Shown in pieces: positions 8,606-35,204 of a DNA stretch of 64,000 nt. Source of the DNA: Escherichia phage vB_EcoM_EP57. Location: the sequence record OR544956. The stretch is one strand, 5' to 3'. A program made the position numbers and the translations under genes. The notes under the pieces were generated by a model. The model was not told where the DNA came from, did not search any database, and was given only the letters and a program-made list of their open reading frames with translations. Within the stretch, counting starts at the first letter, position 1, and each line of letters opens with the position of its first letter.

Positions 8606-9169
8606 ATGATTTATTATATTACTCCCTATCTGACAGGAAATATCGGCAAGGCTATCAATGAAGCCATTGCCGTTCTTCCAGATGATAGTTGGGTGTGTTT
8701 AAGAGATACCGATACAATGTTCCTCCTACCTGATCAACCATCTATGCTTGAAGAGCTTGTTATGTCAAACCCGCCTTTTGATGTAATAGGTGCAACTTGT
8801 AACAGGTTAGGCAGTGGTTATCAGCTTTTCTCTAACCAAATTAACGATGATCCAGATATTCTAAACCATATAGAATATGCTAAGATTGCAAGAGAATATC
8901 ATAAAGTAAATGTTGAAGAAGTTCCTTTCGGAACACCTCTGGCAGGTTTCTTTTTGCTTTTTAGAAAATCATTGTGGAATGAAATTCCTTTTGAAGAAAA
9001 ATCTATCCAATTCGACTTAATTTTCTCTCGCACTTTACATGAAAAAGGAAAGAGGTTAGGATTGATGCGGGGAATGTATCTGTTTCACATTTACAGATTA
9101 GGTCAAACAAATCCTCAACGGTCTATACATCATTTATTACACTGTCATGATCACAGTAAAACTATTTAG
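8606..9169 (+). CDS. Putative glycosyltransferase-like protein
   Basis: N-terminal pattern NIGKAINEAIAVLPDDSWVCLRDTDTMF resembles GT-A nucleotide-sugar transferases; first gene of a glycosyltransferase block. Confidence 0.3.
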   Translation: MIYYITPYLTGNIGKAINEAIAVLPDDSWVCLRDTDTMFLLPDQPSMLEELVMSNPPFDVIGATCNRLGSGYQLFSNQINDDPDILNHIEYAKIAREYHKVNVEEVPFGTPLAGFFLLFRKSLWNEIPFEEKSIQFDLIFSRTLHEKGKRLGLMRGMYLFHIYRLGQTNPQRSIHHLLHCHDHSKTI

Positions 9170-9177
9170 GAGAGAAA

Positions 9178-9861
9178 ATGGAAAATATTAAAATCGGAGT
9201 GGGTGTTATCACTGTAGGTGTCCGTCCGCTTAAAGACTACCTTGTAACAGATCCACGTGCAGATTTTCGAGTATTCAACGATCCAGATCGTAAAGGTGTA
9301 GCTTATGCCAGGAATGAACTTATGCACCAGTTTTATGAAGAAGGTTATGATTATTGGTTTATTTTTGACGACGATTGCTACCCAGTCATGGAGGGATGGG
9401 AAACATATTTTGTAGATCAAGCTGTCTCTGGAGGATGGGATTTCTTTGGTATGCCGGAGTACTTCAAAGATAAAGTTGTTGGAAGCAAAGGAGAAGTTAT
9501 TCTCTGGGAACTTGCAATGTGTCAATTTGCAATGTATTCTCGTGCCGTTGTTGAGAAGATGGGTTATTTCCGTCCTTACACTCACGGTTATGGTTTTGAA
9601 GATGCTGAATGGGGACACCGTTTGCAAGCTGCTGGTTTGAATCATGGTATTCAGGCAACACCTTGTCCACTTCGTATCATGGCTTATATCCACCCAGACG
9701 ATGTTTTTGGAAACAATCCTATGCCTTTTGCTAATCTGACAAAAGAAGAGAAAGAAGCTGCTATTGGGATTAACTGGGAAGAATATAAAGCATCTTTAGA
9801 GGATATTAAAAATGGGAAAATCCGAATTTCCTATGAGGAGGCACTAGCACATGTCAAATAA
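9178..9861 (+). CDS. Glycosyltransferase, GT-A fold (family 2-like)
   Basis: GVRPLKDYL...AYARNELM...DYWFIFDDDCYP (DxD-type motif). Confidence 0.5.
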   Translation: MENIKIGVGVITVGVRPLKDYLVTDPRADFRVFNDPDRKGVAYARNELMHQFYEEGYDYWFIFDDDCYPVMEGWETYFVDQAVSGGWDFFGMPEYFKDKVVGSKGEVILWELAMCQFAMYSRAVVEKMGYFRPYTHGYGFEDAEWGHRLQAAGLNHGIQATPCPLRIMAYIHPDDVFGNNPMPFANLTKEEKEAAIGINWEEYKASLEDIKNGKIRISYEEALAHVK

Positions 9862-10798
9862 AAAATGGTCTAAACTAAAAATTGATGCAAAACCTCACAG
9901 CGGTTGTGACTATCATCGTATTGTTATGCCATTTAACAACAATAATATTCAACCTAAGAAAGATGCTGTTGTGTTTAACCGTATCCACTCTAAAGGTGCA
10001 GAATACGTTTTATCTTTGAAACGTCAAGGTGTTAAGATTGTTGTAGATTTAGATGATTTCTACCAACTTAATCCAGAACATTATTTAGCAAGTCTATACG
10101 AGTCAAACACTCATGCTATTGTAGCTATGGTTAAGCTTGCGGATGTGGTTATTGTGACTACGGAATATTTGGCATATAAGATCCGTCACTTAAATAGGAA
10201 TGTTGTTGTGATCCGAAATGCACTTCCTTTTGATAGTGGACAATTCACTTTGTCAAATGATCGTTCATCCGGTACCCCTGTTGTATGGGCTGGCGGTGCT
10301 AGTCACGAACCAGACTTACGACTAGTCTCTAATACTTTCGATGATGAACTTCTTACTATTGCGGGATATGAAACATCACAAAGCATCACGGGACAAGAGT
10401 GGATTAAGATTCGCAGAAATTTACCAAATGCTAAATATAAAGCCGCTGTAAAAGATTTAGATAATTACATGAGTGTTTACGAAAGTCATGCTATTGCTAT
10501 AGCTCCTTTGGTAGATAACGATTTTAATAATTGTAAAAGTAATCTCAAAATCCTGGAAGCTGGAGCAAAAGGTATTCCAATTGTTTGTTCTAAGGTATTA
10601 CCTTATTTTAACCCTGTAGATGCTCGCGCTGTTGCTTACGCAGAGAATAAAGCAGAATGGCATTACGAAATTGTTAAGCTTCTTCGCAATCCAAACTATC
10701 GGGAAGATCGTGGCTTGTTCTTGGCTGAACATGTTCGAACACATTATAATCTGGCAGATGCAAACGAGTTGCGACGCCAGGTTATTGAAAGTTTGTAG
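9851..10798 (+). CDS. Glycosyltransferase, GT-B-like, tandem paralog 1
   Basis: Paralogous to 10806..11750 over the full length; C-terminal NNCKSNLKILEAGAKGIPIVCS resembles the GT-B nucleotide-sugar binding motif. Confidence 0.5.
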   Translation: MSNKKWSKLKIDAKPHSGCDYHRIVMPFNNNNIQPKKDAVVFNRIHSKGAEYVLSLKRQGVKIVVDLDDFYQLNPEHYLASLYESNTHAIVAMVKLADVVIVTTEYLAYKIRHLNRNVVVIRNALPFDSGQFTLSNDRSSGTPVVWAGGASHEPDLRLVSNTFDDELLTIAGYETSQSITGQEWIKIRRNLPNAKYKAAVKDLDNYMSVYESHAIAIAPLVDNDFNNCKSNLKILEAGAKGIPIVCSKVLPYFNPVDARAVAYAENKAEWHYEIVKLLRNPNYREDRGLFLAEHVRTHYNLADANELRRQVIESL

Positions 10799-10805
10799 GT
10801 GAAGT

Positions 10806-11750
10806 ATGGGACAAATAATTCTTGACAATCGTAACGGAATCAATTATAGTGTCTGCGATTTCCATAGGGTAGTGCTGCCTTACTCAAGGCAGTTCTCTTC
10901 ACAACCTAAACACAACGTTTTCGTTTTTAACGGGGTGCCAACAAAAGGTAAAGAGGGCTTTTTAGCCCTTAAAAACCTAGGCTTTAAAATGGTTATGGAT
11001 TTGGATGACTCTTTAGTTATTCCAAAAGGACACATGTTAGAAGGTATTTTTGAATCAGGTATTCGTGAACATTTAAAATGGTTTTTAGAGCACAGCGATC
11101 TTGTTACAACTACGACACCTGCTTTGCAAGTTGAACTTTCACAATACAATGATAATGTGCACATAATCCCTAATGGACTTCCTTACGATGAAGGTCAATT
11201 TGTGTTGACCCGTGATCGCTACTCCAAAACTCCATTAGTCTGGGCTGGAAGTGAAACACATAAACAAGATTTGGCTATCTTGCCCGATTTTGGTAAAGAT
11301 CTTACAATATGTGGTTTTCGTAGGGATTCTGAAGTTTTAAGTAGTCGTGAATGGTCTGTGATCAGAGAAAATGTAGCACCAACTTGTGTTTATGAAGGTG
11401 TAAGACCATATGCCAACTACATGGAATCTTACGATGGTCATCAAATCAGTCTTGCGCCATTGATTGATAACGTGTTTAATAATGCAAAAAGCAATCTTAA
11501 AATTCTTGAGGCAGGTGCTAAGGGTTTACCTTTGATTTGTTCTCCTCGTGAGAATTATCATACACAAGAGTTTAAAGATTTGTTATTCTTTGCTGAAACA
11601 CCTTCCGAGTGGAAAGATATTACGGAATACTTATTAAGTGCTCCCGATGTTTGCATGGAGAAAGGATTAGCATTAGCTAAGTATGTCAGGACTCATTATC
11701 ACATTGATGTGTTGAATGAGCGTCGTAGACTTTTATTTGAGGAGCTATAA
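10806..11750 (+). CDS. Glycosyltransferase, GT-B-like, tandem paralog 2
   Basis: NNAKSNLKILEAGAKGLPLICS; about 35-40 percent identity to paralog 1 by eye. Confidence 0.5.
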   Translation: MGQIILDNRNGINYSVCDFHRVVLPYSRQFSSQPKHNVFVFNGVPTKGKEGFLALKNLGFKMVMDLDDSLVIPKGHMLEGIFESGIREHLKWFLEHSDLVTTTTPALQVELSQYNDNVHIIPNGLPYDEGQFVLTRDRYSKTPLVWAGSETHKQDLAILPDFGKDLTICGFRRDSEVLSSREWSVIRENVAPTCVYEGVRPYANYMESYDGHQISLAPLIDNVFNNAKSNLKILEAGAKGLPLICSPRENYHTQEFKDLLFFAETPSEWKDITEYLLSAPDVCMEKGLALAKYVRTHYHIDVLNERRRLLFEEL

Positions 11751-12040: not shown

Positions 12041-13561
12041 GTGTCGCACATTATAACTAAATATGGATTTGATGTTGATCTTAGCAAGGAAGGGCATACA
12101 GGTTGTCCGCGCTGCATGAAAAATGGCAAGGATCGCTCTCGTAATAACCTGATGGTTTATGGATTAGATTCTAATGGAGAGCATAAAGGTGCTAAGTGCT
12201 TTGCGTGTGAATACACTATTCCTAGCGTAGAATGGTTACGAGAAAATGGTGAAGTTTTAGAAGAAGAGGAGGAGATTGTGGGTTCGGAATTTAATAAACA
12301 GATTCATCGTAAAATTGTTCAAGAAACATCAACCAACCCACGTGGTTATCGAGGCATTAAAGAAAAAGTTTCATCTTTCTATGGCGTTCGTTATGAATAC
12401 CGTCAGGAAGGGGATCAGATGGTAGTAGAAAGTTGTTTATATCCGACTACCATCGGTAAAGAGTTGGTTGGTTTTAAGCGTCGTATTCATCCTAAAGATT
12501 TCAGTAAACCTATTGGTCAAGTAGGTAAAGATGTAGATCTTTTTGGACAAATTCGTTTTGCAGACCGTTCTCATACTGTGGTAATTACAGGTGGTGAACA
12601 CGATGCTCTGGCAGCTTATCAAATGCTGTCTGAAAACTTGGACAACAAATATGAACTTCCAGCAGTAGTTAGTGGCACAACTGGTGAAACCAGTATGTAT
12701 AAACAAGTTCAGGCACAATATCCTTTCTTTGAAAAATTTAAGAAGATTATTGTTTGCATGGATAATGACAAAGCAGGTAATGAGGCATTTGAAAATATTG
12801 TTAAGGTGCTGCCTCGTAACAAAGTCTACCGTATGCAGATGGATCTAAAGGATGCCAATCAGTATCTGGAAGAAGGCCGTGCAAAAGATTTCGTAAAAGC
12901 TTTTTGGAGTGCTCGTCTATACACCCCAGCAGGTGTTTATGCTTCTAATGTCTTGTATGAAGCTGCATTAGAATGCTTGGAATCCAAGATGATTACCTTG
13001 CCTCCTTTTATGCGTGTTGCTGCAAACATGCTGGGTGGTGGTTTAGTAGAGGAAGAGATTACCGTCATCCTGGCAAAGACCAGTATCGGTAAAACTTTGA
13101 TGGTGAACGAGATCACCAAACATATTATTGTTGCGCACCCAGAACATACCCTAGGTATTCTGTCCTTGGAAGCAACTTATAAGAAATATTCTCGTAACCT
13201 GTTGTCCTCGTTCCTGCATATTCCTCTACACAGGAAAACACCGGAAGAGAAATTTCAAATCTTGGAAGAGAATAAAGAAAAAATCCTAGATTTTTACGAA
13301 AGAGAAGATGGATCACCACGTTTTTATGTGTGTGATGATCGTGGAGCAGATGTGGAGTCTATCAAAGAAAAAGTTTTGGAGATGATCATCTATTTTGGAG
13401 TAACAATTCTTGTTATCGACCCTTATTCTGATTTGCTTTCTGGTATGGATGTTCAAGCCCAGGAAGAGTTAGCAACATGGTTGAAGCGCATCATGAAAGA
13501 GTATGCTATAACCATTATCCACACGTTAAGAAGTCGGCTAATGGTGGCAATGAACACTTAA
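12041..13561 (+). CDS. DNA primase/helicase (T7 gp4-like), N-terminal and central part; reading frame changes near 13520
   Basis: N-terminal Cys4 zinc ribbon (CPRCMKNG...CFACEY), Walker A LAKTSIGKT, beta-strand ITIIH; the C-terminal helicase motifs continue in the -1 frame. Confidence 0.7.
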   Translation: MSHIITKYGFDVDLSKEGHTGCPRCMKNGKDRSRNNLMVYGLDSNGEHKGAKCFACEYTIPSVEWLRENGEVLEEEEEIVGSEFNKQIHRKIVQETSTNPRGYRGIKEKVSSFYGVRYEYRQEGDQMVVESCLYPTTIGKELVGFKRRIHPKDFSKPIGQVGKDVDLFGQIRFADRSHTVVITGGEHDALAAYQMLSENLDNKYELPAVVSGTTGETSMYKQVQAQYPFFEKFKKIIVCMDNDKAGNEAFENIVKVLPRNKVYRMQMDLKDANQYLEEGRAKDFVKAFWSARLYTPAGVYASNVLYEAALECLESKMITLPPFMRVAANMLGGGLVEEEITVILAKTSIGKTLMVNEITKHIIVAHPEHTLGILSLEATYKKYSRNLLSSFLHIPLHRKTPEEKFQILEENKEKILDFYEREDGSPRFYVCDDRGADVESIKEKVLEMIIYFGVTILVIDPYSDLLSGMDVQAQEELATWLKRIMKEYAITIIHTLRSRLMVAMNT

Positions 13562-13812
13562 CAGAGGACGATGCAATGGGTAGTAGTTTCTTGGCTAAAG
13601 GTGCTGGTATTACCTTGGCTTTGGAACGAGATAAAGCCGCTGAAGACCCTGTAGAACGCAATACGACTCATTGCTTTATCCTAAAAAACCGTGAGTTCTC
13701 GGAAACTGGTCCGGCAGGGCAGTTTTACTATGACATTAGAACTGCAACTCTGCATGACAAAGAGCAGTATTTCAACAATCCTGCTAATTTGCCTACGGAT
13801 AGCAACTATTAA
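13477..13812 (+). CDS. C-terminal segment of the primase/helicase in the -1 frame
   Basis: HVKKSANGGNEHLTEDDAMGSSFLAKGAGITLALERDKAAED resembles the T7 gp4 helicase C-terminal motifs (LICHLKNPDKG...[23 protein letters not shown]). Confidence 0.55.
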   Translation: MVEAHHERVCYNHYPHVKKSANGGNEHLTEDDAMGSSFLAKGAGITLALERDKAAEDPVERNTTHCFILKNREFSETGPAGQFYYDIRTATLHDKEQYFNNPANLPTDSNY

Positions 13813-13842: not shown

Positions 13843-13871
13843 TTGACAACTTTACGGAAGAGATTTATACT
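13843..13871 (+). promoter_or_regulatory. Strong sigma70-type promoter (TTGACA-17-TATACT)
   Basis: Consensus -35 at 13843-13848, 17-nt spacer, TATACT at 13866-13871; gaggagaag then ATG at 13905. Confidence 0.6.
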
Positions 13872-13904: not shown

Positions 13905-14336
13905 ATGCGTATGACAATCGATCTGAATGCAAAAGTTAAAGCTGCTGGTGCTCTGGGTGCTGGTGTTATTAAACACAAACAAGCGTTGGCATTTGCCATC
14001 CCACATATGATTGTTGAGGATCATCCTGAAGAGTTTGCTGTAAAAGTTGTTGAGAACAATGTCTCTGTTATTGAACATCTTCCAACTGGACGTTCTTACC
14101 GTGTTGTTTCTTCTAAAGGTTTTCGTTTCGATGTAAGCCCTTCTTTCACAAAAGGTGCTGGTCGTAGTAAAGTGGGTATTCTTTCTTACAAATATTATAT
14201 CGATAAAGTTGCAGATGGTGTCGCATTCTGTCGTGTAAGTGAAGGTAAAGTAGATATCATCTTTAAAAATACCAAAAACATGGTTATTTCTGACGATGGT
14301 AAAGTTGACCTCACTATTGAGTTCGCTAACAACTAA
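13905..14336 (+). CDS. Hypothetical protein, first gene behind a strong promoter
   Basis: ORF with strong ribosome-binding site. Confidence 0.45.
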   Translation: MRMTIDLNAKVKAAGALGAGVIKHKQALAFAIPHMIVEDHPEEFAVKVVENNVSVIEHLPTGRSYRVVSSKGFRFDVSPSFTKGAGRSKVGILSYKYYIDKVADGVAFCRVSEGKVDIIFKNTKNMVISDDGKVDLTIEFANN

Positions 14337-14345
14337 GGAGGACTA

Positions 14346-15140
14346 TTGAGCAAGTTGAATACACTTGATCAATATTACACTAACCCCGCTTATGCGGGGT
14401 TCTTATGTGATAAGATCAAAGAAATTTTTGGAGAGGAAGCTAACTACGTAGAACCATCTGCGGGAGAAGGAGCTTTCTCTTTTTGTTTTAAAAACATAAC
14501 TTCTTTTGATATTGATCCTAAGTTTGAAGATTGTATTGAGGCAGATTTTTTAGCTCAATCTGTTGAGTCTGTTGGTAGTGTAACTGCTTTTGTCGGTAAT
14601 CCTCCGTTTGGAAAAAATGCCAGTCTTGCCATTAAGTTCTTTAACCATTGTGCTGAAATGTTGGATAACGAAGGTGGTATTTGTTTTATCTTGCCTCGCA
14701 CATTTCAAAAAATCTTTTTTGCACACAAACTAAATCCCCACATGCATCTTCTTTACGAAGAAGAATGTCCAAAAGGATCTTTTATTCTTCATGGAGAACC
14801 TTGGGATGTTCCTTGTGTATTCCAGATATGGATTAAACGCAACGAGAAGCGTTCTCCCGTTGTTTTAGGAGAAAATCGACTGTTCGTATTAGGTAACAGT
14901 AAAGACTACGACATAGCCGTTAGGAGAGCGGGAGCAAGTGCAGGTAAAGTGTTATCAGAAGAAGATTCTTTATCTGAAGCATCTACCTACTTTTTAAAAG
15001 CCTTGACTTCTGATCTTAAAACACGTATCATTGAGGCTTACCCGTTACTTAAAGCTGAAGCTAGTAAAACTGCGGGAGTAAGAAGTTTAAGTTTAAAAGA
15101 ACTTCAGTGGGTTCTGGAGAACATTAGAAAGGAGGAATAG
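14346..15140 (+). CDS. DNA N6-adenine (amino) methyltransferase
   Basis: Motif I-like EPSAGEGAF and catalytic motif IV GNPPFG (NPPF/Y); TTG start after aaggagga. Confidence 0.6.
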   Translation: MSKLNTLDQYYTNPAYAGFLCDKIKEIFGEEANYVEPSAGEGAFSFCFKNITSFDIDPKFEDCIEADFLAQSVESVGSVTAFVGNPPFGKNASLAIKFFNHCAEMLDNEGGICFILPRTFQKIFFAHKLNPHMHLLYEEECPKGSFILHGEPWDVPCVFQIWIKRNEKRSPVVLGENRLFVLGNSKDYDIAVRRAGASAGKVLSEEDSLSEASTYFLKALTSDLKTRIIEAYPLLKAEASKTAGVRSLSLKELQWVLENIRKEE

Positions 15141-17737
15141 TGAGTAAGTTTACATGGGATATTGAAGCAAACGGATTGTTGAATAATGACACTATTGATT
15201 ATTTAGCTAGTCCTTATCGTCTCAAAGACACATTTCAAATGCACTGTATTGTCTTAGAGAACCATGAAACAGGAGAAATAGTAGCTTTCCACGATGGCCC
15301 TAAATACATCTTTGATGGGCGTCCTTATGAAGAGTCAGATGGTAAATACACATATGTTCTTAAAGAGTATGTGGCGCAAGATTACACACATTTTCAACTA
15401 AAAGATTTCCCAGATTTTATTAATCATGAAGGTTATTTTAAAGATAAGCCTGAATATCTGGTTGAAATGGCTGTGGCTCACAACGGTATCAACTACGACT
15501 GGTTGGCTACAAAACTGTTTTATGGATTAGATTACAGTGTTAAATATAATACGTGGGGCAAAAATAAGGTAAAACTTATTGACTCCTTGATTTTGAGTAA
15601 AGTGTTAAACCCAGATCGAAAGATTGAGGGCAAATCAGGACATAGCTTGGCAGCACTTTCTCGAAAAGCAGGTGGTGATGTAAAAATAGATTTCCGTAAA
15701 GAGATTCCAGAAGAAGATCGATTTAAGACTTTTGCTGCGGATATGCTTTATTACTGTATCTATGACAACAAAGCCAATACGAGCGTATATAATTACCTTA
15801 TGGAAGAATGGGGTGATTATGATAAATGGGAAGGTCCATTTGAACTTGAACAACGTGTAGCAGACATTATTACACGTCAGGAACACCGTGGATTTGCTTT
15901 TAACATGAAACAAGCAGAAGAGAACCTTGCTTTTTTGGATGCAGAAATGGAGCGTCTTCGTTTACTCGTTGAGCCTATTTTGCCACCTAAACCAGCAACA
16001 AAAGGTTATCTTAAGGCTTTTATTCCACCTAAGTTGCAAATTAAAAAGAACTTAGAGCCAACTAACCATATGATCAATTTTGCTAAGAAACATGATGGTC
16101 ATTTGGAAGAGAGGGATGGCGATTGGTGGTTAGTTATGTTGGGGAAAGAGTGGAAACTGCCAGTTGCAGCAGATGAGCCTCTATGTGATCCTAACATCCC
16201 TGCAACATTGAACGATACAACCCATATTAAAAACTGGCTTGTAGGATTAGGTTGGGTACCGTCTGAATATAAAGATAAAGACTTGACGCTTAAATCTGGC
16301 ACCAAAATTAAAAAGAGCGAGGAAGAACTTCAGAAAGGTATTCGAGCTTACGTTGAGCAAACTCTATCTTCTAATTTTTGTCAGGATCGTTGTGATCATC
16401 TGGAGTGCACACCGGAAACCTTGGAAAGGAAGATTCAAGAGCGTATAGCAAAAGGTAAAGGTCGCGGTCTTAAAGTATTGACTAACCCGTGTTTTACCAA
16501 AGGTCAGGAAAAAGAAATTTGTCCTAACCTGCAAGCTTTGGGTGAGAAGTTTCCTTATGCTACACAGATTGTAGAATACTTAACGTATAAGCATCGTAGG
16601 AACTCTATTTTAGGTGGCGGTGCTGATTGGGAAGAAGATGAAGAAGATCAAGAATACGATAAAGGTTTCTTAGCCGCAGTAAGGGCGGATGGTCGTATTC
16701 CTACCCCAGCAGCTACATGTGATGCTGCAACCTCTCGTATGAAGCATAGGTCTGTAGCTAATATTCCTCGTGTCACATCTTTGTTTGGATGGGAGATGCG
16801 TAACTTGTTTGGTGTAGAGGTTCCTAAATACTTCCAGATTGGCTACGACTTCGACTCTTTGGAAGCAAAAATTGAATCACACTACTGTTGGCGGTACGAG
16901 CCGGAGCCACACGAATATTGTAACGCTCTGTTATTAGAGAAACCTAATGATGTTCACACAATGATGGCAAAACGTATCACTGAAACTATCGGACGTAAAT
17001 TTGAACGTAGTCCTGCTAAATCTGTTAAGTATGGTATTACCTATGGTGCACAAGCCGACAAGGTTGCTAAAACAATTGGTAGCGATAAGTTTACAGGTCA
17101 ATTGGTGTTCGATGCTTTCTGGGAAGCTGCATTCCCATTGGCGCGTCTTAAAGAACGTTTAAACGATTTCTGGGTTAAGACTGGTAAACAATATGTTTTG
17201 GGTATTGACGGTCGTAAGGTTCCTACTCGTTCTGCTCACGCGATTCTTAACTCTCTGTTCCAAAGCGGCGGGGTTATCTGTGCTAAACGTGCAATGGTTA
17301 TTTATGACGACATGATCGAAGAAGAAGGGCTAAGTGTTGACTTCTTTAAAGATGACTGGAAGAATAAAGATTTCGTGCAACAAATGATTGCATATCACGA
17401 TGAAGCCCAGCTTGAAGTTTCTCGTAACCTTGTAGAATTTAAATGGTTTTCACCTGAATCATTAGGTTGGAAGAAAGTAGACGATCCTGAAGAACAAAAG
17501 AAAATTGATAAAGAATGCCTTGCTAAAGTTGAAGAATGGAAGCATAATAAGGAAAAAGAGACGGGACAAATTTGGGCTAACATTCATGAATCTCCCAAAG
17601 GTGGATGGTTTACAGCCTATAGTCGGGCAGGTGAACTTGCTGCTTTAGCTGTTACTAAGGCTGGAGAATTTTACAATCTTAACGTTCAGCTTACTGCCGG
17701 ATATGATGTGGGTAACTCTTGGGCGTCCTGTCACTAG
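15140..17737 (+). CDS. DNA polymerase, family A (T7 gp5-like) with N-terminal 3'-5' exonuclease
   Basis: WDIEANGL exonuclease motif; C-terminus RSAHAILNSLFQSGG ... GNSWASCH resembles T7 gp5 (RSPHAALNTLLQSAG ... GPNWAICH); GTG start after aggagg. Confidence 0.85.
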   Translation: MSKFTWDIEANGLLNNDTIDYLASPYRLKDTFQMHCIVLENHETGEIVAFHDGPKYIFDGRPYEESDGKYTYVLKEYVAQDYTHFQLKDFPDFINHEGYFKDKPEYLVEMAVAHNGINYDWLATKLFYGLDYSVKYNTWGKNKVKLIDSLILSKVLNPDRKIEGKSGHSLAALSRKAGGDVKIDFRKEIPEEDRFKTFAADMLYYCIYDNKANTSVYNYLMEEWGDYDKWEGPFELEQRVADIITRQEHRGFAFNMKQAEENLAFLDAEMERLRLLVEPILPPKPATKGYLKAFIPPKLQIKKNLEPTNHMINFAKKHDGHLEERDGDWWLVMLGKEWKLPVAADEPLCDPNIPATLNDTTHIKNWLVGLGWVPSEYKDKDLTLKSGTKIKKSEEELQKGIRAYVEQTLSSNFCQDRCDHLECTPETLERKIQERIAKGKGRGLKVLTNPCFTKGQEKEICPNLQALGEKFPYATQIVEYLTYKHRRNSILGGGADWEEDEEDQEYDKGFLAAVRADGRIPTPAATCDAATSRMKHRSVANIPRVTSLFGWEMRNLFGVEVPKYFQIGYDFDSLEAKIESHYCWRYEPEPHEYCNALLLEKPNDVHTMMAKRITETIGRKFERSPAKSVKYGITYGAQADKVAKTIGSDKFTGQLVFDAFWEAAFPLARLKERLNDFWVKTGKQYVLGIDGRKVPTRSAHAILNSLFQSGGVICAKRAMVIYDDMIEEEGLSVDFFKDDWKNKDFVQQMIAYHDEAQLEVSRNLVEFKWFSPESLGWKKVDDPEEQKKIDKECLAKVEEWKHNKEKETGQIWANIHESPKGGWFTAYSRAGELAALAVTKAGEFYNLNVQLTAGYDVGNSWASCH

Positions 17738-18154: not shown

Positions 18155-18373
18155 ATGCGTAAACTAGTGAGCTTTAATGTTTCAATTCTTATTGATGAAC
18201 AAAATGAAGATGTTATTAAAGGTCTTGCAAATAAGATTGCAGGTGGAATGACGGAAGCTGAAGTGTGGGAAGAATGTGCTCGACTTTATGAGGAAGGTGT
18301 TATTGAGGTCTTGGGAGATGAGATTAATATGGACGATATTGTTAAAGTAACTGTGGAGCGTATCAATGACTAA
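18155..18373 (+). CDS. Hypothetical small acidic protein
   Basis: ORF track; aaggagaaaacaATG. Confidence 0.3.
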   Translation: MRKLVSFNVSILIDEQNEDVIKGLANKIAGGMTEAEVWEECARLYEEGVIEVLGDEINMDDIVKVTVERIND

Positions 18374-18593
18374 ATCAAAACAAATCAATATTGCCAAAGA
18401 AATTCTTACCGTATTAAAGATCGCTGATCCTAATTCTGTCTTGGCTGGCGGTGCTGTTCGTGATTGGCGTATTCTTGATATTGCTGGACGTGATCTGGAT
18501 TTTTACACATCTCTTCCTGCACATCGGAAGGTGTTACTGGTCTTAAACACGTTTTTGAGTTTGAACGTGATGGTCAGCTTTGCAACCTTATGA
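18366..18593 (+). CDS. Pol-beta-superfamily nucleotidyltransferase (CCA-adding-like head), N-terminal segment; continues in the -1 frame
   Basis: VLAGGAVRDWRILDIAGRDLDFYT (GGxVRD plus DxD). Confidence 0.45.
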   Translation: MTKSKQINIAKEILTVLKIADPNSVLAGGAVRDWRILDIAGRDLDFYTSLPAHRKVLLVLNTFLSLNVMVSFATL

Positions 18594-18868
18594 TTATGGA
18601 ACCAAGCGTAATGACAACCTTTCTAAATGAGTTTGATCTGTCCATCTGTCAAGCTGCATTTGATGGGAAGGATTGTTATTATTCTAAAGATTTTGAAACA
18701 ACCTTGGAAACAGGGATCTGCTTCTTGCACAAAGATGTTAGAGAAGATGCCAAACACGTTATTAAAATTGCTACACGTTTCCCATATCTTCGTTTTGTGA
18801 AAGAGGTTAAGGTTCCACGTCCACCTCAAGTAGATACCAGATTGGAAGAAGATGATATTCCTTGGTAA
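18590..18868 (+). CDS. C-terminal segment of the nucleotidyltransferase (frame -1 relative to 18366..18593)
   Basis: This frame is open upstream of its first Met and reads ...EGVTGLKHVFEFERDGQLCNLMIMEPSV... Confidence 0.4.
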   Translation: MIMEPSVMTTFLNEFDLSICQAAFDGKDCYYSKDFETTLETGICFLHKDVREDAKHVIKIATRFPYLRFVKEVKVPRPPQVDTRLEEDDIPW

Positions 18869-23491: not shown

Positions 23492-24940
23492 TTAGGTTGT
23501 TGGCACATCTACTACTGGCGTTGGGCGAATAACCGCAGTATTACCTACAGAAACATTACTGGAATCATTAGGTATGGTTTTAATTCTAACTCCAGCACTT
23601 GTAGGCGTTACAATTGGATCTGCAATGTCTATTTTAACTGGGTTAGTCCACGTATCATTATCTTGATAAGGTGCACGAGTAATAACTGTGTCCAAATCTG
23701 CTCCACCTACGCCAGCACCAGGAATACGGATACGTGTCCCTGCTGACAGAGGGTAATGATACAACCAAGAAGCATTTGTTGCTGTCCCGTTAGGAGTCAA
23801 GTTCTGTGTCAGGAAGGTATCTCCTGCCTGTGTAGCTCGAATACCGAAAGCTGGGATATCTGGAATATATGCCCCACTTGTTGTTACAAGGAAGAACGTA
23901 TTATCCGCCTTGACTATCATATCACCTTTGTCAAACTCTTTCCCTGTTGGGAAATGCATTCCATCAATGTTTCGACTAGGATTAGGCTCTAAGTAATAAA
24001 CTTTGCCCGTTGTCCCTACAATAGCTCCAATACCACCTGCGATATTGGTATACATATTAGCTTCAACATTACAGTTGACACGATGAATATCCGAGTAACG
24101 GCAACGGCTCCACTGTGGACGACCAGTAACCATCGTCTTGCCATCTGGGTAACAGTTTACGTTAACCATTTCAAGAACAGATTTTTCTCTACGGAAGAAT
24201 CCATCATAAAATGTTCCTGGACCAGATTCAGGTTGACCAACACAATCGAAGATATTACAGGTGATGTTAGACATTGAAAGCCAAGAAGCTATACCGAACA
24301 ACTGCAATGCAGCGCAACGAATATTTTCAAAGCTAACTCTGTTTTCATAACCTGGCCCAGCGGAAACTCCCGCAAAAACACGCCCAGTTTTGGTGTGAAT
24401 GTTACGAACAGAATAGTTAAAGCATGGGTTTGAAGGTCTACCCTGTGCCGGAACTACCGGATTACCCTCTTCGTCCAGAACTGCGTTAGTTCCCCACTCC
24501 AAATAAATCATACGGATATTACTTGCAAGTGTGCTACCGTCTGTTTTAGGCTCCCCATAAACACCGTCAATCGTAAAATCTTTACTTCCATACATTACAA
24601 CTGCGCCAGTTGCCAAACCTGTCCCAACAGATACGGTTTGATCTGGATCGCCATGAATGTTTTCGATAGAAATATTACGACCAACTTCTACGTGGACAAT
24701 CTGACGGCAACGTTTTGCAAAAACGTTACGAATTGTAATATTCTTGCAATATTGATCATCAGGGATTCCGTAACCATATGGTCCTTTACCAGCTACACCG
24801 ATACCGATACCCCAGTTGGACAGAGGAATAGGAGCGTTAGTCCCATCGATATTAGACAGGTAAATATTCTCAATCACACAACCATCATCATAATGTTTAT
24901 TGATGACGTTCAGTTCTATCGCATCACCTTGCATGTCCAT
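23492..24940 (-). CDS. Tailspike or tail fiber C-terminal segment with a parallel beta-helix (pectate-lyase-like) region
   Basis: NITIRNV...ISIENIHG...NIRMIYLEWG repeats; its frame is open upstream of the first Met and overlaps the end of 24970..25704 in the -1 frame. Confidence 0.5.
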   Translation of the reverse strand: MDMQGDAIELNVINKHYDDGCVIENIYLSNIDGTNAPIPLSNWGIGIGVAGKGPYGYGIPDDQYCKNITIRNVFAKRCRQIVHVEVGRNISIENIHGDPDQTVSVGTGLATGAVVMYGSKDFTIDGVYGEPKTDGSTLASNIRMIYLEWGTNAVLDEEGNPVVPAQGRPSNPCFNYSVRNIHTKTGRVFAGVSAGPGYENRVSFENIRCAALQLFGIASWLSMSNITCNIFDCVGQPESGPGTFYDGFFRREKSVLEMVNVNCYPDGKTMVTGRPQWSRCRYSDIHRVNCNVEANMYTNIAGGIGAIVGTTGKVYYLEPNPSRNIDGMHFPTGKEFDKGDMIVKADNTFFLVTTSGAYIPDIPAFGIRATQAGDTFLTQNLTPNGTATNASWLYHYPLSAGTRIRIPGAGVGGADLDTVITRAPYQDNDTWTNPVKIDIADPIVTPTSAGVRIKTIPNDSSNVSVGNTAVIRPTPVVDVPTT

Positions 24941-29517: not shown

Positions 29518-31283
29518 AGGTGCAAGAGTAGCATCTGGAACAAAACCTGCATCTTACCTTCCAACAACCAGTCATAACACTCTGAACAGTAAAAATCAAA
29601 AGCTTCAGGAATGTAGTAATCAGACGGGAAGTTAACTTTCTCCATCAAACCGTTGCCGATAATTGATGGCAAGAACGGAAGCAATGTTACCTTGGCTCCT
29701 GGGTAAGTTGCTCTAGTATCTGTTGCAAACTTTGTAACTCTTAATCCTAGTTTACGAGACAAAAATGCATAGTATTCGTCAAACGGCGTTCCTGTTTTAT
29801 AATTATCTATTGTTCCTGCATCTTGTGCAAATAAACCTGTTTCTGTGTTGAATGCCAGTTTGGTAGTGTAATCATATATGCAAGGCATTTTACTTGCTGT
29901 ATTATACCACCACCAAGGCTCACCAATTTGAATGACAACTGGAATATTATTAGCTTGCGAAATAGATGCTATTTTATTAATAACATTTTGCAAATATTCC
30001 ATACCTTCGTCAATAGTTGGAGACAACACATAACTAGGAGGTTTATACCCTGTTGCTGCAAGAGCATCGTTCCAATCATGCTGGACCCATTCTACAGGAC
30101 AAACTGTGCTCATCAATTCAAAACTTAAAGAGTTCATTATTGTGTAGCCCTTCTCGTTTGCTATAGAATGGAAGCTGTTAAGCCAAGCTTCTGTAGCCGG
30201 ATTCAGGAAAACAGATTTATTTAAAGCCCAAGATGTTCCATTCCATGAGAACTCATAATAGTGAGACATTCCGTTATAATGGTTAATCATCCCACGATAA
30301 CCTAGTGCATATGTATTATAAATAACTCTCTCTGGAGTCAGGTTATACATATCATCATAAGATGTGCACATGCGAATATCATGTTCAGGCTGGACAAGGT
30401 TGCTGACTTTCATCATACTGTAACCAGAAGTAGGTTCAAGAAGAGTGAAAGTAAACCAAGCCTCTTGACTGGCAATAGGTACAATCTCTTCTATTTCTTC
30501 GTACCTTGCTGTAATCAAAGAGAAGAAAATATTATCTACAGCACTCATATCCAAAGGAATATCATTATTAGGGCCAGAAAAGATATTACCAAAATCTAAC
30601 TTGATTGTAGCTGTTTTACCATCTTCTGAAATATCTAAAGCGTAGAATCCTAAACTGACATAATGAACACTTTTATCCAGGAGAGTTACAGTCAAAGTCG
30701 GCACCAAAGGTTCTTCTTTAAAACCTGGCATGTTTTGACTAATTTCCATTTTAAACCAAAGTTTCTCTGAACTTAAATCTGTGTGGGGTAAATACCCAAC
30801 ACCTTTATGGTCATATTTGTCAACTGTGCTCCAGATAACCCCTGCCAAACCTGCTGTTGTTCTGTTTACAAATCTTGCAGTAAAAGAGTCTCCATGAGAT
30901 ACAATAGAACAACTTTCCGTTGCTTGAGAATCTATTGTCCAATACATAGGAGAGAACATTTTAACGTCTTTTGTAGTCCAAGTTATTGGAGTAGTATTTT
31001 CTTGGATAGTAGTTATAATACAATTGATGGTTGTTTCAACCATCATATTATTTTGACTAATCCCTGAAACTTGGAGGGAGAAGTTAAGATCTATTGAGTT
31101 CTTTGGTCGTTCAAATACTTCAACCACAATAGTAGCAGAATCAGCATCATCAGGGAACACAAGTGTTCCCGATTTTGCAATATAATCTCTACCAGCGACT
31201 GCTGTTCCGTCAACAGTCGTGTAGTTAAATGAACTCGCATTTACTCTCTTGTCTCGCGTGACAGTAAATATAGCTTGTTTCAT
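29466..31283 (-). CDS. Tail-associated protein with N-terminal Calx-beta domain and a probable glycoside-hydrolase-like domain
   Basis: TVDGTAVAGRDYIAKSGTLVFPDDADSATIVVEVFER matches the Calx-beta signature; C-terminal ~30 aa look out-of-frame. Confidence 0.5.
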   Translation of the reverse strand: MKQAIFTVTRDKRVNASSFNYTTVDGTAVAGRDYIAKSGTLVFPDDADSATIVVEVFERPKNSIDLNFSLQVSGISQNNMMVETTINCIITTIQENTTPITWTTKDVKMFSPMYWTIDSQATESCSIVSHGDSFTARFVNRTTAGLAGVIWSTVDKYDHKGVGYLPHTDLSSEKLWFKMEISQNMPGFKEEPLVPTLTVTLLDKSVHYVSLGFYALDISEDGKTATIKLDFGNIFSGPNNDIPLDMSAVDNIFFSLITARYEEIEEIVPIASQEAWFTFTLLEPTSGYSMMKVSNLVQPEHDIRMCTSYDDMYNLTPERVIYNTYALGYRGMINHYNGMSHYYEFSWNGTSWALNKSVFLNPATEAWLNSFHSIANEKGYTIMNSLSFELMSTVCPVEWVQHDWNDALAATGYKPPSYVLSPTIDEGMEYLQNVINKIASISQANNIPVVIQIGEPWWWYNTASKMPCIYDYTTKLAFNTETGLFAQDAGTIDNYKTGTPFDEYYAFLSRKLGLRVTKFATDTRATYPGAKVTLLPFLPSIIGNGLMEKVNFPSDYYIPEAFDFYCSECYDWLLEGKMQVLFQMLLLHLCMALILNQTTARIFGR

Positions 31284-34107: not shown

Positions 34108-34400
34108 TAAATAACTCCTGCTAAAACTAAGCTACCTGTCCAAGTTGCACCATTATCATAACTGATAAACTCAAAAGTGTCTGTTGCACCTTGACGATAA
34201 CTCAAAACTGGGGAACGACCAAAACTCCATTTTACAGAAGAAGGCCATACGACTTTATTTGCACCACTTCCTTGACGCAAAGCTAAAGTAAAGTTTAAAA
34301 CTGCATTTGTTGCTACTGGAATATTAGTAAAACTAATTGTGCACGTTGCAGAAGATAAAGTTGCAGAAAAATATTCTGCTGAACTAATATCTAATGCCAA
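34107..34400 (-). CDS. Small tail or baseplate protein
   Basis: ORF track. Confidence 0.3.
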   Translation of the reverse strand: MALDISSAEYFSATLSSATCTISFTNIPVATNAVLNFTLALRQGSGANKVVWPSSVKWSFGRSPVLSYRQGATDTFEFISYDNGATWTGSLVLAGVI

Positions 34401-34578
34401 GGCTGGTTACTGTTCCCCGTGCATTCAGACGGTTTCTAGTTACCCCTGCACCACTCAACAACACTTTCAAAGAAGTTTTCTTTGTTATTCCAGCCTGATC
34501 TGTTACAAAGAAATCTGTATCAGACACAGAGGTTGTTTGTGTAAGATCAGAAATTTTGATCGTAGTTAAATCTGCCAT
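34384..34578 (-). CDS. Small tail or baseplate protein
   Basis: ATG with ggag ribosome-binding site. Confidence 0.3.
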   Translation of the reverse strand: MADLTTIKISDLTQTTSVSDTDFFVTDQAGITKKTSLKVLLSGAGVTRNRLNARGTVTSLGIRY

Positions 34579-35204
34579 TACTCTTCTACTCCTGTCATAG
34601 CTGTTATACCGAAATTATTGTTTGTAGTTAATGCATCACCTTTTTCGTTAACCATGATTCTTTCCACTGCTGACTCTGTAGACCATTCATTCCACCAAGT
34701 AGAGTAGGTATCACGTGGCAAACCAACAAAGTTGATAAAGCGATAAAGTCTATTCGAATTCTCAACAATACTGTAAGCTTCACAAATGATCGCTGCATTG
34801 TCTTCACCAGCTTCAGGGTAAATAAACTCTTCAGAAGGTTGAGTATTGAATATAGATGTTACTGTATCTGCTCCTACTGTGACCATAACTGTCATTGAGT
34901 AATAACGTTGATCCATGTCATAAGCAGATTTATAACTGTTTATTGTATCTATGTAAACGTTTTTGGCAATCTCTGCTAAAAATATTCTGTCTACAATATC
35001 TTTCTTTCTAGCAACACCAATAATCTCTTGTAAGTAAGGAACACCGAAGTTAGTATTTAAAAACCACTCCCCACGATACGTGTTCAGAGTTATCCCAAGA
35101 GTTTGTGCTGCAATTTCTGTTCTGGTTGTAGTGAGGACCAAATCCCCATCATCCATGATGAGGTCGTTGTTTGGTCCAAGTTTTAAGTCAAAAGGGATTC
35201 CCAT
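34578..35204 (-). CDS. Baseplate wedge protein (gpW/gp25-like, putative)
   Basis: Position next to the spike; LKLGPNNDLIMDDGDLVLT motif. Confidence 0.35.
   Translation of the reverse strand: MGIPFDLKLGPNNDLIMDDGDLVLTTTRTEIAAQTLGITLNTYRGEWFLNTNFGVPYLQEIIGVARKKDIVDRIFLAEIAKNVYIDTINSYKSAYDMDQRYYSMTVMVTVGADTVTSIFNTQPSEEFIYPEAGEDNAAIICEAYSIVENSNRLYRFINFVGLPRDTYSTWWNEWSTESAVERIMVNEKGDALTTNNNFGITAMTGVEE

Follow-up and report, generated by a model that had tools for sequence, protein, structure and literature searches.

What does a methyltransferase gene do for a phage when it stands directly before the DNA polymerase gene and no restriction enzyme stands beside it? This question is raised by an open reading frame (ORF) at positions 14346..15140 (+) of a 64,000-nucleotide stretch of Escherichia phage vB_EcoM_EP57 (sequence record OR544956), which we analyzed as a whole and refer to as the window. 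The ORF encodes 264 amino acids plus a stop, and we call its product MTase. The original prediction, made from the sequence letters, took it for an N6-adenine DNA methyltransferase and probably an orphan anti-restriction methylase that is co-expressed with replication genes. Solitary phage methyltransferases, such as the Dam enzymes of T4/T2 and of P1, are thought to pre-methylate progeny DNA, a textbook anti-restriction device, and are said to have been reviewed by Murphy et al. in 2013. We conclude that MTase is an ordinary, already annotated solitary phage methyltransferase; the earlier observation was confirmed and its interpretation supported. To these our analysis adds the assignment of MTase to the gamma class, the restriction partner of its family, the absence of that partner from the phage, and the accessory status of the gene.

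The window belongs to a Phapecoctavirus, that is, a phAPEC8-like E. coli myovirus of the subfamily Stephanstirmvirinae, and is 99.2% identical to phage tuntematon over 6 kb. For years the records of phAPEC8, tuntematon, ESCO5 and other relatives have listed the gene as 'putative DNA N6-adenine methyltransferase', an annotation based on similarity, and several other records name it 'hypothetical protein', 'RNA methylase' or 'DarB-like anti-restriction'. The reading offered by the original prediction is thus the existing GenBank annotation and is not new.

MTase has the motif order and fold of gamma-class DNA adenine methyltransferases

MTase has 2462 homologues at E ≤ 0.001 and matches two type II methyltransferase (MTase_II) models of PADLOC, PDLC03255 (E = 1.5e-36, residues 21-254) and PDLC03256 (3.8e-28). 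Because of the number of homologues and the strength of the first of these matches, the relationship is far beyond chance. We aligned 80 homologues that are 38-94% identical to MTase and determined which motifs are conserved and in which order (Table 1). The two motifs on which the original prediction rested, EPSAGEGAF and NPPF, are present and were not lost on proper alignment, both standing as invariant motifs of the family (residue by residue in Table 1). The gamma class is said (Malone, Blumenthal and Cheng, 1995) to have the order X, I, II, III, IV, with the recognition region after the catalytic core. The same linear order was found in MTase, from motif X near the N-terminus to the non-core residues at the C-terminus, so that the motif-order check proposed with the prediction places MTase in the gamma class. 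Motif X, the N-terminal element ahead of motif I in gamma-class enzymes, can also be aligned with the corresponding segment of Ta1320 and METTL5. In the family profile, motifs I to IV align with EPACAHGPF, EIDPK, DFL and GNPPYG of M.TaqI; in M.TaqI-type enzymes motifs II and III provide the acidic and aromatic contacts to the cofactor. Further core motifs lie between NPPF and the C-terminal part of about 100 residues, which carries two family-wide motifs; it may be the DNA-recognition element of MTase, or it may match the periphery of the TaqI catalytic domain.

NPPF alone is not diagnostic, since the six-frame translation of the window contains two matches to [DN]PP[YFW] and 1.6 are expected in shuffles. 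A GxG motif 20-70 residues upstream of such a match was found in the MTase ORF only. The second NPPF, at 8768-8779 (+), lies within a 187-aa glycosyltransferase-like ORF (8606..9169) and is a chance occurrence. A Dam-like reading was rejected: just 40 residues lie between motifs I and IV, where alpha-class (Dam-type) enzymes have their recognition domain, and none of the Dam-family profiles matched MTase in the Pfam or NCBIfam scans.

We then compared the predicted structure of MTase with solved structures. The AlphaFold model, built on the alignment, was confident (predicted local distance difference test score, pLDDT, 94.1; predicted template modelling score, pTM, 0.89). A Foldseek search of the PDB with this model ranked M.BseCI, CamA, a type I HsdM subunit and M.TaqI at the top, with E values of 4e-8 to 1e-6, and of the 264 residues of the model, 222-249 are covered by its matches to gamma-class DNA adenine methyltransferases. 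The fold of MTase is therefore class I Rossmann-like and nearest to the known gamma-class DNA enzymes. The full-length ranking shows that it is the whole MTase that resembles these enzymes, whereas the bare Rossmann core alone resembles RNA enzymes. Together with the gamma-order motifs and the alignment with M.TaqI, the model bears out the call of an amino-methyltransferase. The invariant asparagine of NPPF, the gamma order and the adenine-specific structural neighbours indicate that the atom methylated is probably N6 of adenine.

Homologues of MTase are paired with a restriction endonuclease

We next asked which genes accompany MTase relatives elsewhere. A scan of bacteria, with one genome per species, gave 280 relatives, and the neighbourhoods of the best 79 loci were analyzed; in IMG/VR, 454 viral contigs carried relatives, and the best 80 were analyzed. 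In the bacterial loci, the conserved neighbour met most often is a same-strand ORF of about 215 aa that directly follows the methyltransferase gene; its start and the methyltransferase stop typically overlap by 3-7 nt. This ORF was found in Poseidonibacter, Paracoccaceae, Sphingomonadales, Pseudohongiellaceae, Beijerinckiaceae and Verrucomicrobiae. A profile search detected this partner in 23 of the 79 bacterial loci. It is also present in 13-16 of the 80 viral loci, which include 160-200 kb contigs and giant-virus bins, and there it either directly precedes the methyltransferase gene on the same strand or directly follows it in convergent orientation.

Pfam and NCBIfam scans assigned no family to the partner, and all of its 288 homologues are unnamed. 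The partner matches the PADLOC type II restriction endonuclease (REase_II) model PDLC03460, with E values down to 2.5e-14, its conserved D...(T/S)xK-type residues fit a PD-(D/E)xK site, and it folds like PD-(D/E)xK restriction endonucleases. The linkage of the same two genes in three different orders (methyltransferase first, endonuclease first, and convergent) is good evidence that they are a functional pair. The restriction-linked bacterial homologues carry the same C-terminal motifs as the phage MTase. On these comparisons, the MTase family constitutes the methyltransferase half of a two-gene type II restriction-modification system in bacteria and some large viruses. This recurrent partner defines a concrete, clonable restriction-modification pair from which the recognition site could be learned; examples are the pairs of Poseidonibacter ostreae (locus L012, 4886-5680 and 5690-6289) and of Paracoccaceae (locus L048). 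The enzymes behind PDLC03255, PDLC03256 and PDLC03460 are unnamed, so that a recognition sequence cannot be transferred from these models to the phage MTase. A Helicobacter prophage homologue that matches PDLC03274 perfectly was rejected as a guide to specificity, because it has just the N-terminal 166 residues in common with MTase.

Three further observations were made on the family. Many of the viral relatives come from contigs labelled as giant-virus bins (GVMAG; loci in the range L110-L171), and on some of these contigs the endonuclease partner is present too. In Burkholderia anthina (L034, 4968-8456) and Paraburkholderia sp. (L038, 4953-7430), the family's methyltransferase is fused C-terminally to a second one of the Eco57I/N6_Mtase type, giving proteins of 825-1162 aa; other bacterial copies lie in islands with a serine recombinase, and these islands and the fusions are typical mobile-element contexts. 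Several homologues have a weak precomputed match to Pfam PF26055 (Mtase_EDM2), so that this family of prokaryotes and viruses may be connected with a methyltransferase-like domain of eukaryotes.

The phage gene is solitary and accessory

Is the endonuclease also present in the phage? A profile search at maximum sensitivity for the partner, covering the six-frame translation of the window and the complete 150,473-bp tuntematon genome, gave nothing better than E = 3.6, and thus the phage MTase is solitary. Its own neighbours are a 143-aa ORF and the polymerase gene. The prediction that no partner restriction enzyme would be apparent therefore holds, as the partner that the family has in bacteria and viruses is itself absent from the window and from tuntematon (all E > 3).

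The gene is accessory, being missing from the equivalent position of the sister genus. In Justusliebigvirus (phi92, Eryne) the order is primase/helicase, small ORF and polymerase, with about 90 nt where the MTase gene would be. These phages have a non-homologous beta-class methyltransferase (Pfam N6_N4_Mtase, 1.8e-30) in the same operon, after the SSB gene; in Eryne it lies at 34379-35110, and the window has no gene at the matching site (20210 onward). Such an exchange of unrelated methyltransferases within one operon would be expected of anti-restriction cargo and not of a core replication function.

Two further genes named as methyltransferases were noticed in tuntematon, outside the window: a 'putative DNA methyltransferase' of 169 aa (23572-24081) and a 'Dcm' of 227 aa (30492-31175). 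Neither matches Pfam, and the 169-aa protein matches the MTase family profile weakly (E = 0.001).

A probable role in anti-restriction

With fair confidence, we favour the reading that MTase is an active, compact gamma-class DNA methyltransferase that produces N6-methyladenine at a short specific sequence and so pre-protects progeny DNA against the cognate endonuclease family. The linkage of the bacterial homologues to a restriction enzyme makes an anti-restriction role more likely; DNA as the substrate of the phage copy and protection as its effect are what this linkage would predict. In the mechanism that we propose, a host-type promoter would drive the joint transcription of the MTase and polymerase genes during infection, and translational coupling to the polymerase would lead to methylation of new phage DNA as it is made. 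Motifs I to III would bind S-adenosylmethionine (AdoMet), the target base would be flipped into the NPPF pocket, and its exocyclic amino group would be methylated. Progeny DNA entering a host that carries the endonuclease family would then resist the cognate PD-(D/E)xK enzyme. In a Certrevirus, which is likened to the window by gene arrangement only (helicase, methylase, polymerase), a ClaI digestion pattern was ascribed by the authors to adenine methylation (PMC7344957).

Several results weigh against this reading. The best Pfam match of MTase, Eco57I (PF07669), is below threshold (15.5 bits vs a cut-off of 25.3), N6_Mtase (PF02384) did not match in the same scan, and the NCBIfam scan of MTase gave no match. 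In PHROGs, MTase falls into phrog_5172, of 'unknown function' (6.7e-110), with a weaker match to a DNA methyltransferase phrog. Because Pfam and NCBIfam miss the family and PHROGs gives it as of 'unknown function', many phage records call the gene hypothetical. A sequence search of the PDB with the single protein found nothing significant, and when the family profile was used, the N-terminal domain matched RNA methyltransferases first (Ta1320, 7.6e-5; METTL5, 1.5e-3; M.TaqI, 0.4). Past the catalytic core there are just about 100 aa, far fewer than in the recognition domains of the solved enzymes that MTase resembles. A literature search for methylation data on phAPEC8, rV5, Vequintavirus and Phapecoctavirus returned only similarity-based statements. 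Finally, the BASEL study reported that Vequintavirinae, which carry a homologue of 54% identity, and phi92-like phages were 'exceptionally susceptible' to those restriction systems that it tested (PMC8594841).

The composition of the genome points in the same direction. Restriction sites are very strongly avoided in the window and in tuntematon. Of the six-base palindromes, 24 are missing or almost missing from the 150 kb of tuntematon. CTGCAG (31 expected), GGATCC (24 expected) and GCATGC do not occur at all, and CAGCTG, CCATGG and CGATCG occur once each; AAGCTT is abundant (110 copies), and GAATTC and GATATC are present in 27 and 50 copies. Among four-base palindromes, GTAC, GGCC, CCGG and CTAG are depleted (observed/expected 0.33, 0.39, 0.46 and 0.50), and GATC, TGCA, AGCT, TTAA and TCGA are not avoided (1.00, 1.01, 0.94, 0.89 and 0.83). 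Site avoidance, judged from these counts, appears to be the main anti-restriction device of the phage, and because of this heavy reliance on it, methylation would be at most a minor part of the strategy. If the target of MTase is a short palindrome, it may more likely be sought among the non-avoided sites that contain adenine (GATC, TGCA, AGCT, TTAA and TCGA), which we offer only as a lead. A comparison of avoidance with the sister genus was dropped as a way of finding the target, since it is confounded by the beta-class methyltransferase of Justusliebigvirus itself.

Phapecoctaviruses are used in phage-therapy cocktails, and knowing which restriction enzyme MTase neutralises would help to predict host range.

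Other roles and other substrates

We considered the possibility that MTase is a sequence-specific DNA adenine methyltransferase whose main role is not defence, but the marking of phage DNA for replication, packaging, expression timing or as self; in a variant of the latter, a phage nuclease would destroy unmethylated host DNA. Dam methylation serves the packaging of phage P1. Such a role would suit a gene that lies in a replication operon and is coupled to the polymerase, and it would agree with the high restriction sensitivity of relatives that carry a homologue and with the evasion of many enzymes by site avoidance. The sister genus, however, replicates without the gene at that position and has an unrelated beta-class methyltransferase, which fits interchangeable cargo better, and the recurrent partner of the homologues is a restriction endonuclease; no methylation-dependent element was identified. 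Nothing specific speaks for a regulatory or self-marking role, and we regard a main role outside defence as unlikely.

Methylation of N4 of cytosine was also considered, because both reactions use the same fold and a (D/N/S)PP(Y/F) motif. N4-cytosine enzymes typically have SPP(Y/F), however, and are mostly of the beta class, whereas the MTase family has the invariant N85 and the gamma order, and each of its structural neighbours acts on adenine; we give cytosine very little chance as the target.

A methyltransferase of the M.EcoGII type, without specificity or with a very short motif, would place N6-methyladenine throughout the genome. The protein is small, and its short post-core region, unusually conserved across the family, could mean little discrimination of sequence. 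Pairing of the homologues with a dedicated endonuclease nevertheless implies a defined site. GAATTC and GATATC are present in the numbers given above, and adenine-sensitive enzymes should be blocked if adenines were methylated throughout. Vequintavirus, with its homologue of 54% identity, was efficiently restricted in the BASEL study (PMC8594841). Because Vequintavirinae and phi92-like phages are restriction-sensitive, protection by MTase must be narrow and not general, so that blanket adenine methylation is very unlikely.

The weak sequence matches to Ta1320 and METTL5, together with some automated names, suggest instead an RNA N6-adenosine methyltransferase acting on host rRNA or phage tRNAs and thereby biasing translation in infection. 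METTL5, Ta1320 and PH1948 are indeed the closest sequence relatives in the PDB of the N-terminal Rossmann domain and have NPPF in common with it. They are, however, single-domain proteins of about 200 aa, without a counterpart of the C-terminal ~100 residues of the phage MTase, and the crystal structure of METTL5 is that of a complex with TRMT112. Only the N-terminal ~130 residues of MTase match this type, and weakly, and about 100 more residues are conserved in MTase. The RNA-enzyme matches span just the Rossmann core of about 150 residues, whereas the DNA enzymes align over 222-249 residues and take the top Foldseek ranks. Moreover, a restriction endonuclease accompanies homologues that share the C-terminal motifs of MTase, and it does so in three gene orders, which is sensible only for DNA modification. 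We consider an RNA substrate most improbable. That MTase is an inactive remnant kept by linkage is scarcely credible: residue 195 is A in the phage protein and a nearly invariant V in the family, with no specific support otherwise, and against this none of the catalytic and cofactor motifs is damaged, 195 of 227 phage records have the gene at full length, and identity across Phapecoctavirus is 97-99.6%.

Start site and operon layout

The features of the locus are collected in Table 1. The N-terminus of MTase, MSKLNTLDQYYT, matches the first residues of the homologues position by position (MSK.N.LDQYYT in the family alignment), which supports the TTG start. The 143-aa ORF ends 9 nt 5' of this TTG and gave no match in Pfam and PADLOC scans; phi92-like phages have a 131-aa ORF at its position, a correspondence by position only. 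The overlap of the MTase stop with the start of the polymerase gene suggests that the two genes are translationally coupled. The promoter candidate sits in the gap that separates the primase/helicase gene from the 143-aa ORF; in the phAPEC8 record a promoter is listed at some point of the homologous 6 kb. A scan of the + strand from this candidate to the end of the MTase gene, ahead of the polymerase gene, found no terminator-like site, and the transcript of the MTase and polymerase genes probably starts at the candidate. On account of the promoter-like site, the lack of a + strand terminator and the stop/start overlap, the 143-aa ORF, MTase and the polymerase look like one transcription unit. 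Both the position of the ORF directly upstream of the polymerase gene and its co-expression with replication genes, as originally proposed, are in line with this layout. In other phage groups the MTase homologue is likewise placed among replication and nucleotide-metabolism genes.

Table 1. Features of the MTase locus and deletion sites in the window
Feature	Position in window	Strand	Residues	Remarks
Candidate sigma-70-like promoter (TTGACA, 17 nt, TATACT)	13843..13871	+		Consensus scan, 11/12 matches; consensus match only
143-aa ORF	13905..14336	+		No assigned function; just upstream of MTase gene, same operon
Shine-Dalgarno AAGGAGG	14335..14341	+		4 nt 5' of TTG start; read from sequence
MTase ORF	14346..15140	+	1-264	TTG start at 14346; TAG stop at 15138-15140
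Motif X region DQYYTNPAYA	14367..14396	+	8-17	D8, Y11, T12, A17 invariant or nearly so
Motif I EPSAGEGAF	14451..14477	+	36-44	AdoMet-binding loop; E36, P37, A39, G40, G42 invariant
Motif II FDIDP and motif III DFL	14502..14552	+	53-57 and 67-69	D55, P58 invariant
Motif IV NPPF	14598..14609	+	85-88	Catalytic tetrapeptide positioning the target amino group; N85, P86, P87 invariant, F88 nearly
C-terminal part	14841..15137	+	166-264	After last core strand; secondary structure from model
RRAGASAGK	14922-14948	+	193-201	Family-wide motif RR(V/A)GxxAGK; R194, G196, G200 invariant
TAGVRSLS	15069-15092	+	242-249	Family-wide motif TAGVRS(L/I)S; G244, S247 invariant
Stop/start overlap TAGTG	15138..15142	+		MTase stop and polymerase GTG start share one base
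DNA polymerase gene	15140..17737	+		865 aa; next downstream; named DNA polymerase I in relatives
Deletion sites	4379, 13520, 18527, 20245, 22476, 25758, 26585, 27912, 29148, 29549, 38604, 43406, 54926, 57721, 58122, 63004			

Distribution among phages and other features of the window

The gene is present in 64 phage records at 97-99.6% protein identity and in Vequintavirus (rV5-like) at about 54%; more distant copies were found in jumbo coliphages, Felix O1-like phages, Pseudomonas KIL phages, cyanophages and a Helicobacter phage. Five 'Campylobacter phage' records (MG065650, MG065690, MG065661, MG065653 and MG065677) carry copies that are 99% (phAPEC8-type) or 54% (rV5-type) identical, have genomes of a size usual for coliphages, and look like coliphage genomes filed under Campylobacter names. 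A copy of 99% identity on an 18.6-kb contig of a metagenome-assembled genome (JAEZZU010000159.1, 'MAG: Proteobacteria bacterium OH_PFB_59') most likely marks a phage contig binned into a bacterial genome.

Compared with tuntematon (about 99% identity), the window has numerous clean deletions, the smallest of 7 nt and the largest of about 4 kb. The one of 7 nt frameshifts the primase/helicase gene (ORFs 12041..13561 and 13477..13812), another of 91 nt frameshifts the tRNA nucleotidyltransferase gene (18366..18593 and 18590..18868), and several others lie in tail-fibre genes. Natural variation, a defective genome or an error of assembly could account for these deletions. At 8606-11750 (+), a short way upstream of the primase/helicase gene, is a run of glycosyltransferase-like ORFs whose products may act on DNA or on host glycans; one of the ORFs (10806..11750) matches Pfam Glyco_trans_1_2; four glycosyltransferases are annotated in relatives, and tuntematon encodes a complete dTDP-rhamnose pathway in a region outside the window.

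Comparison with known systems

M.TaqI (TCGA), M.BseCI (ATCGAT), CamA (CAAAAA) and the methyltransferase part of MmeI share with the phage MTase the fold, the motif order and similar motifs (EPxxxxGxF, DP, DFL and GNPP[YF]). The phage MTase is 12-19% identical to these enzymes and, with 264 residues vs 421-580, is 160-320 residues shorter, without their large C-terminal recognition domain. The Dam enzymes of T4/T2 and P1 are, like the phage MTase, encoded by phages without a cognate endonuclease. They differ from it in class and are unrelated in sequence: Dam belongs to the alpha class, has its recognition domain between motifs I and IV and acts on GATC, whereas the phage MTase belongs to the gamma class. 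In phAPEC8 (JX561091 / NC_020079), tuntematon (MN850618, tuntematon_120, QHR71976.1) and about 60 other Phapecoctavirus genomes, we find the same gene at 99.2-99.6% amino acid identity, of equal length, at the same site between the 143-aa ORF and the polymerase, and with no material difference from the copy in the window.

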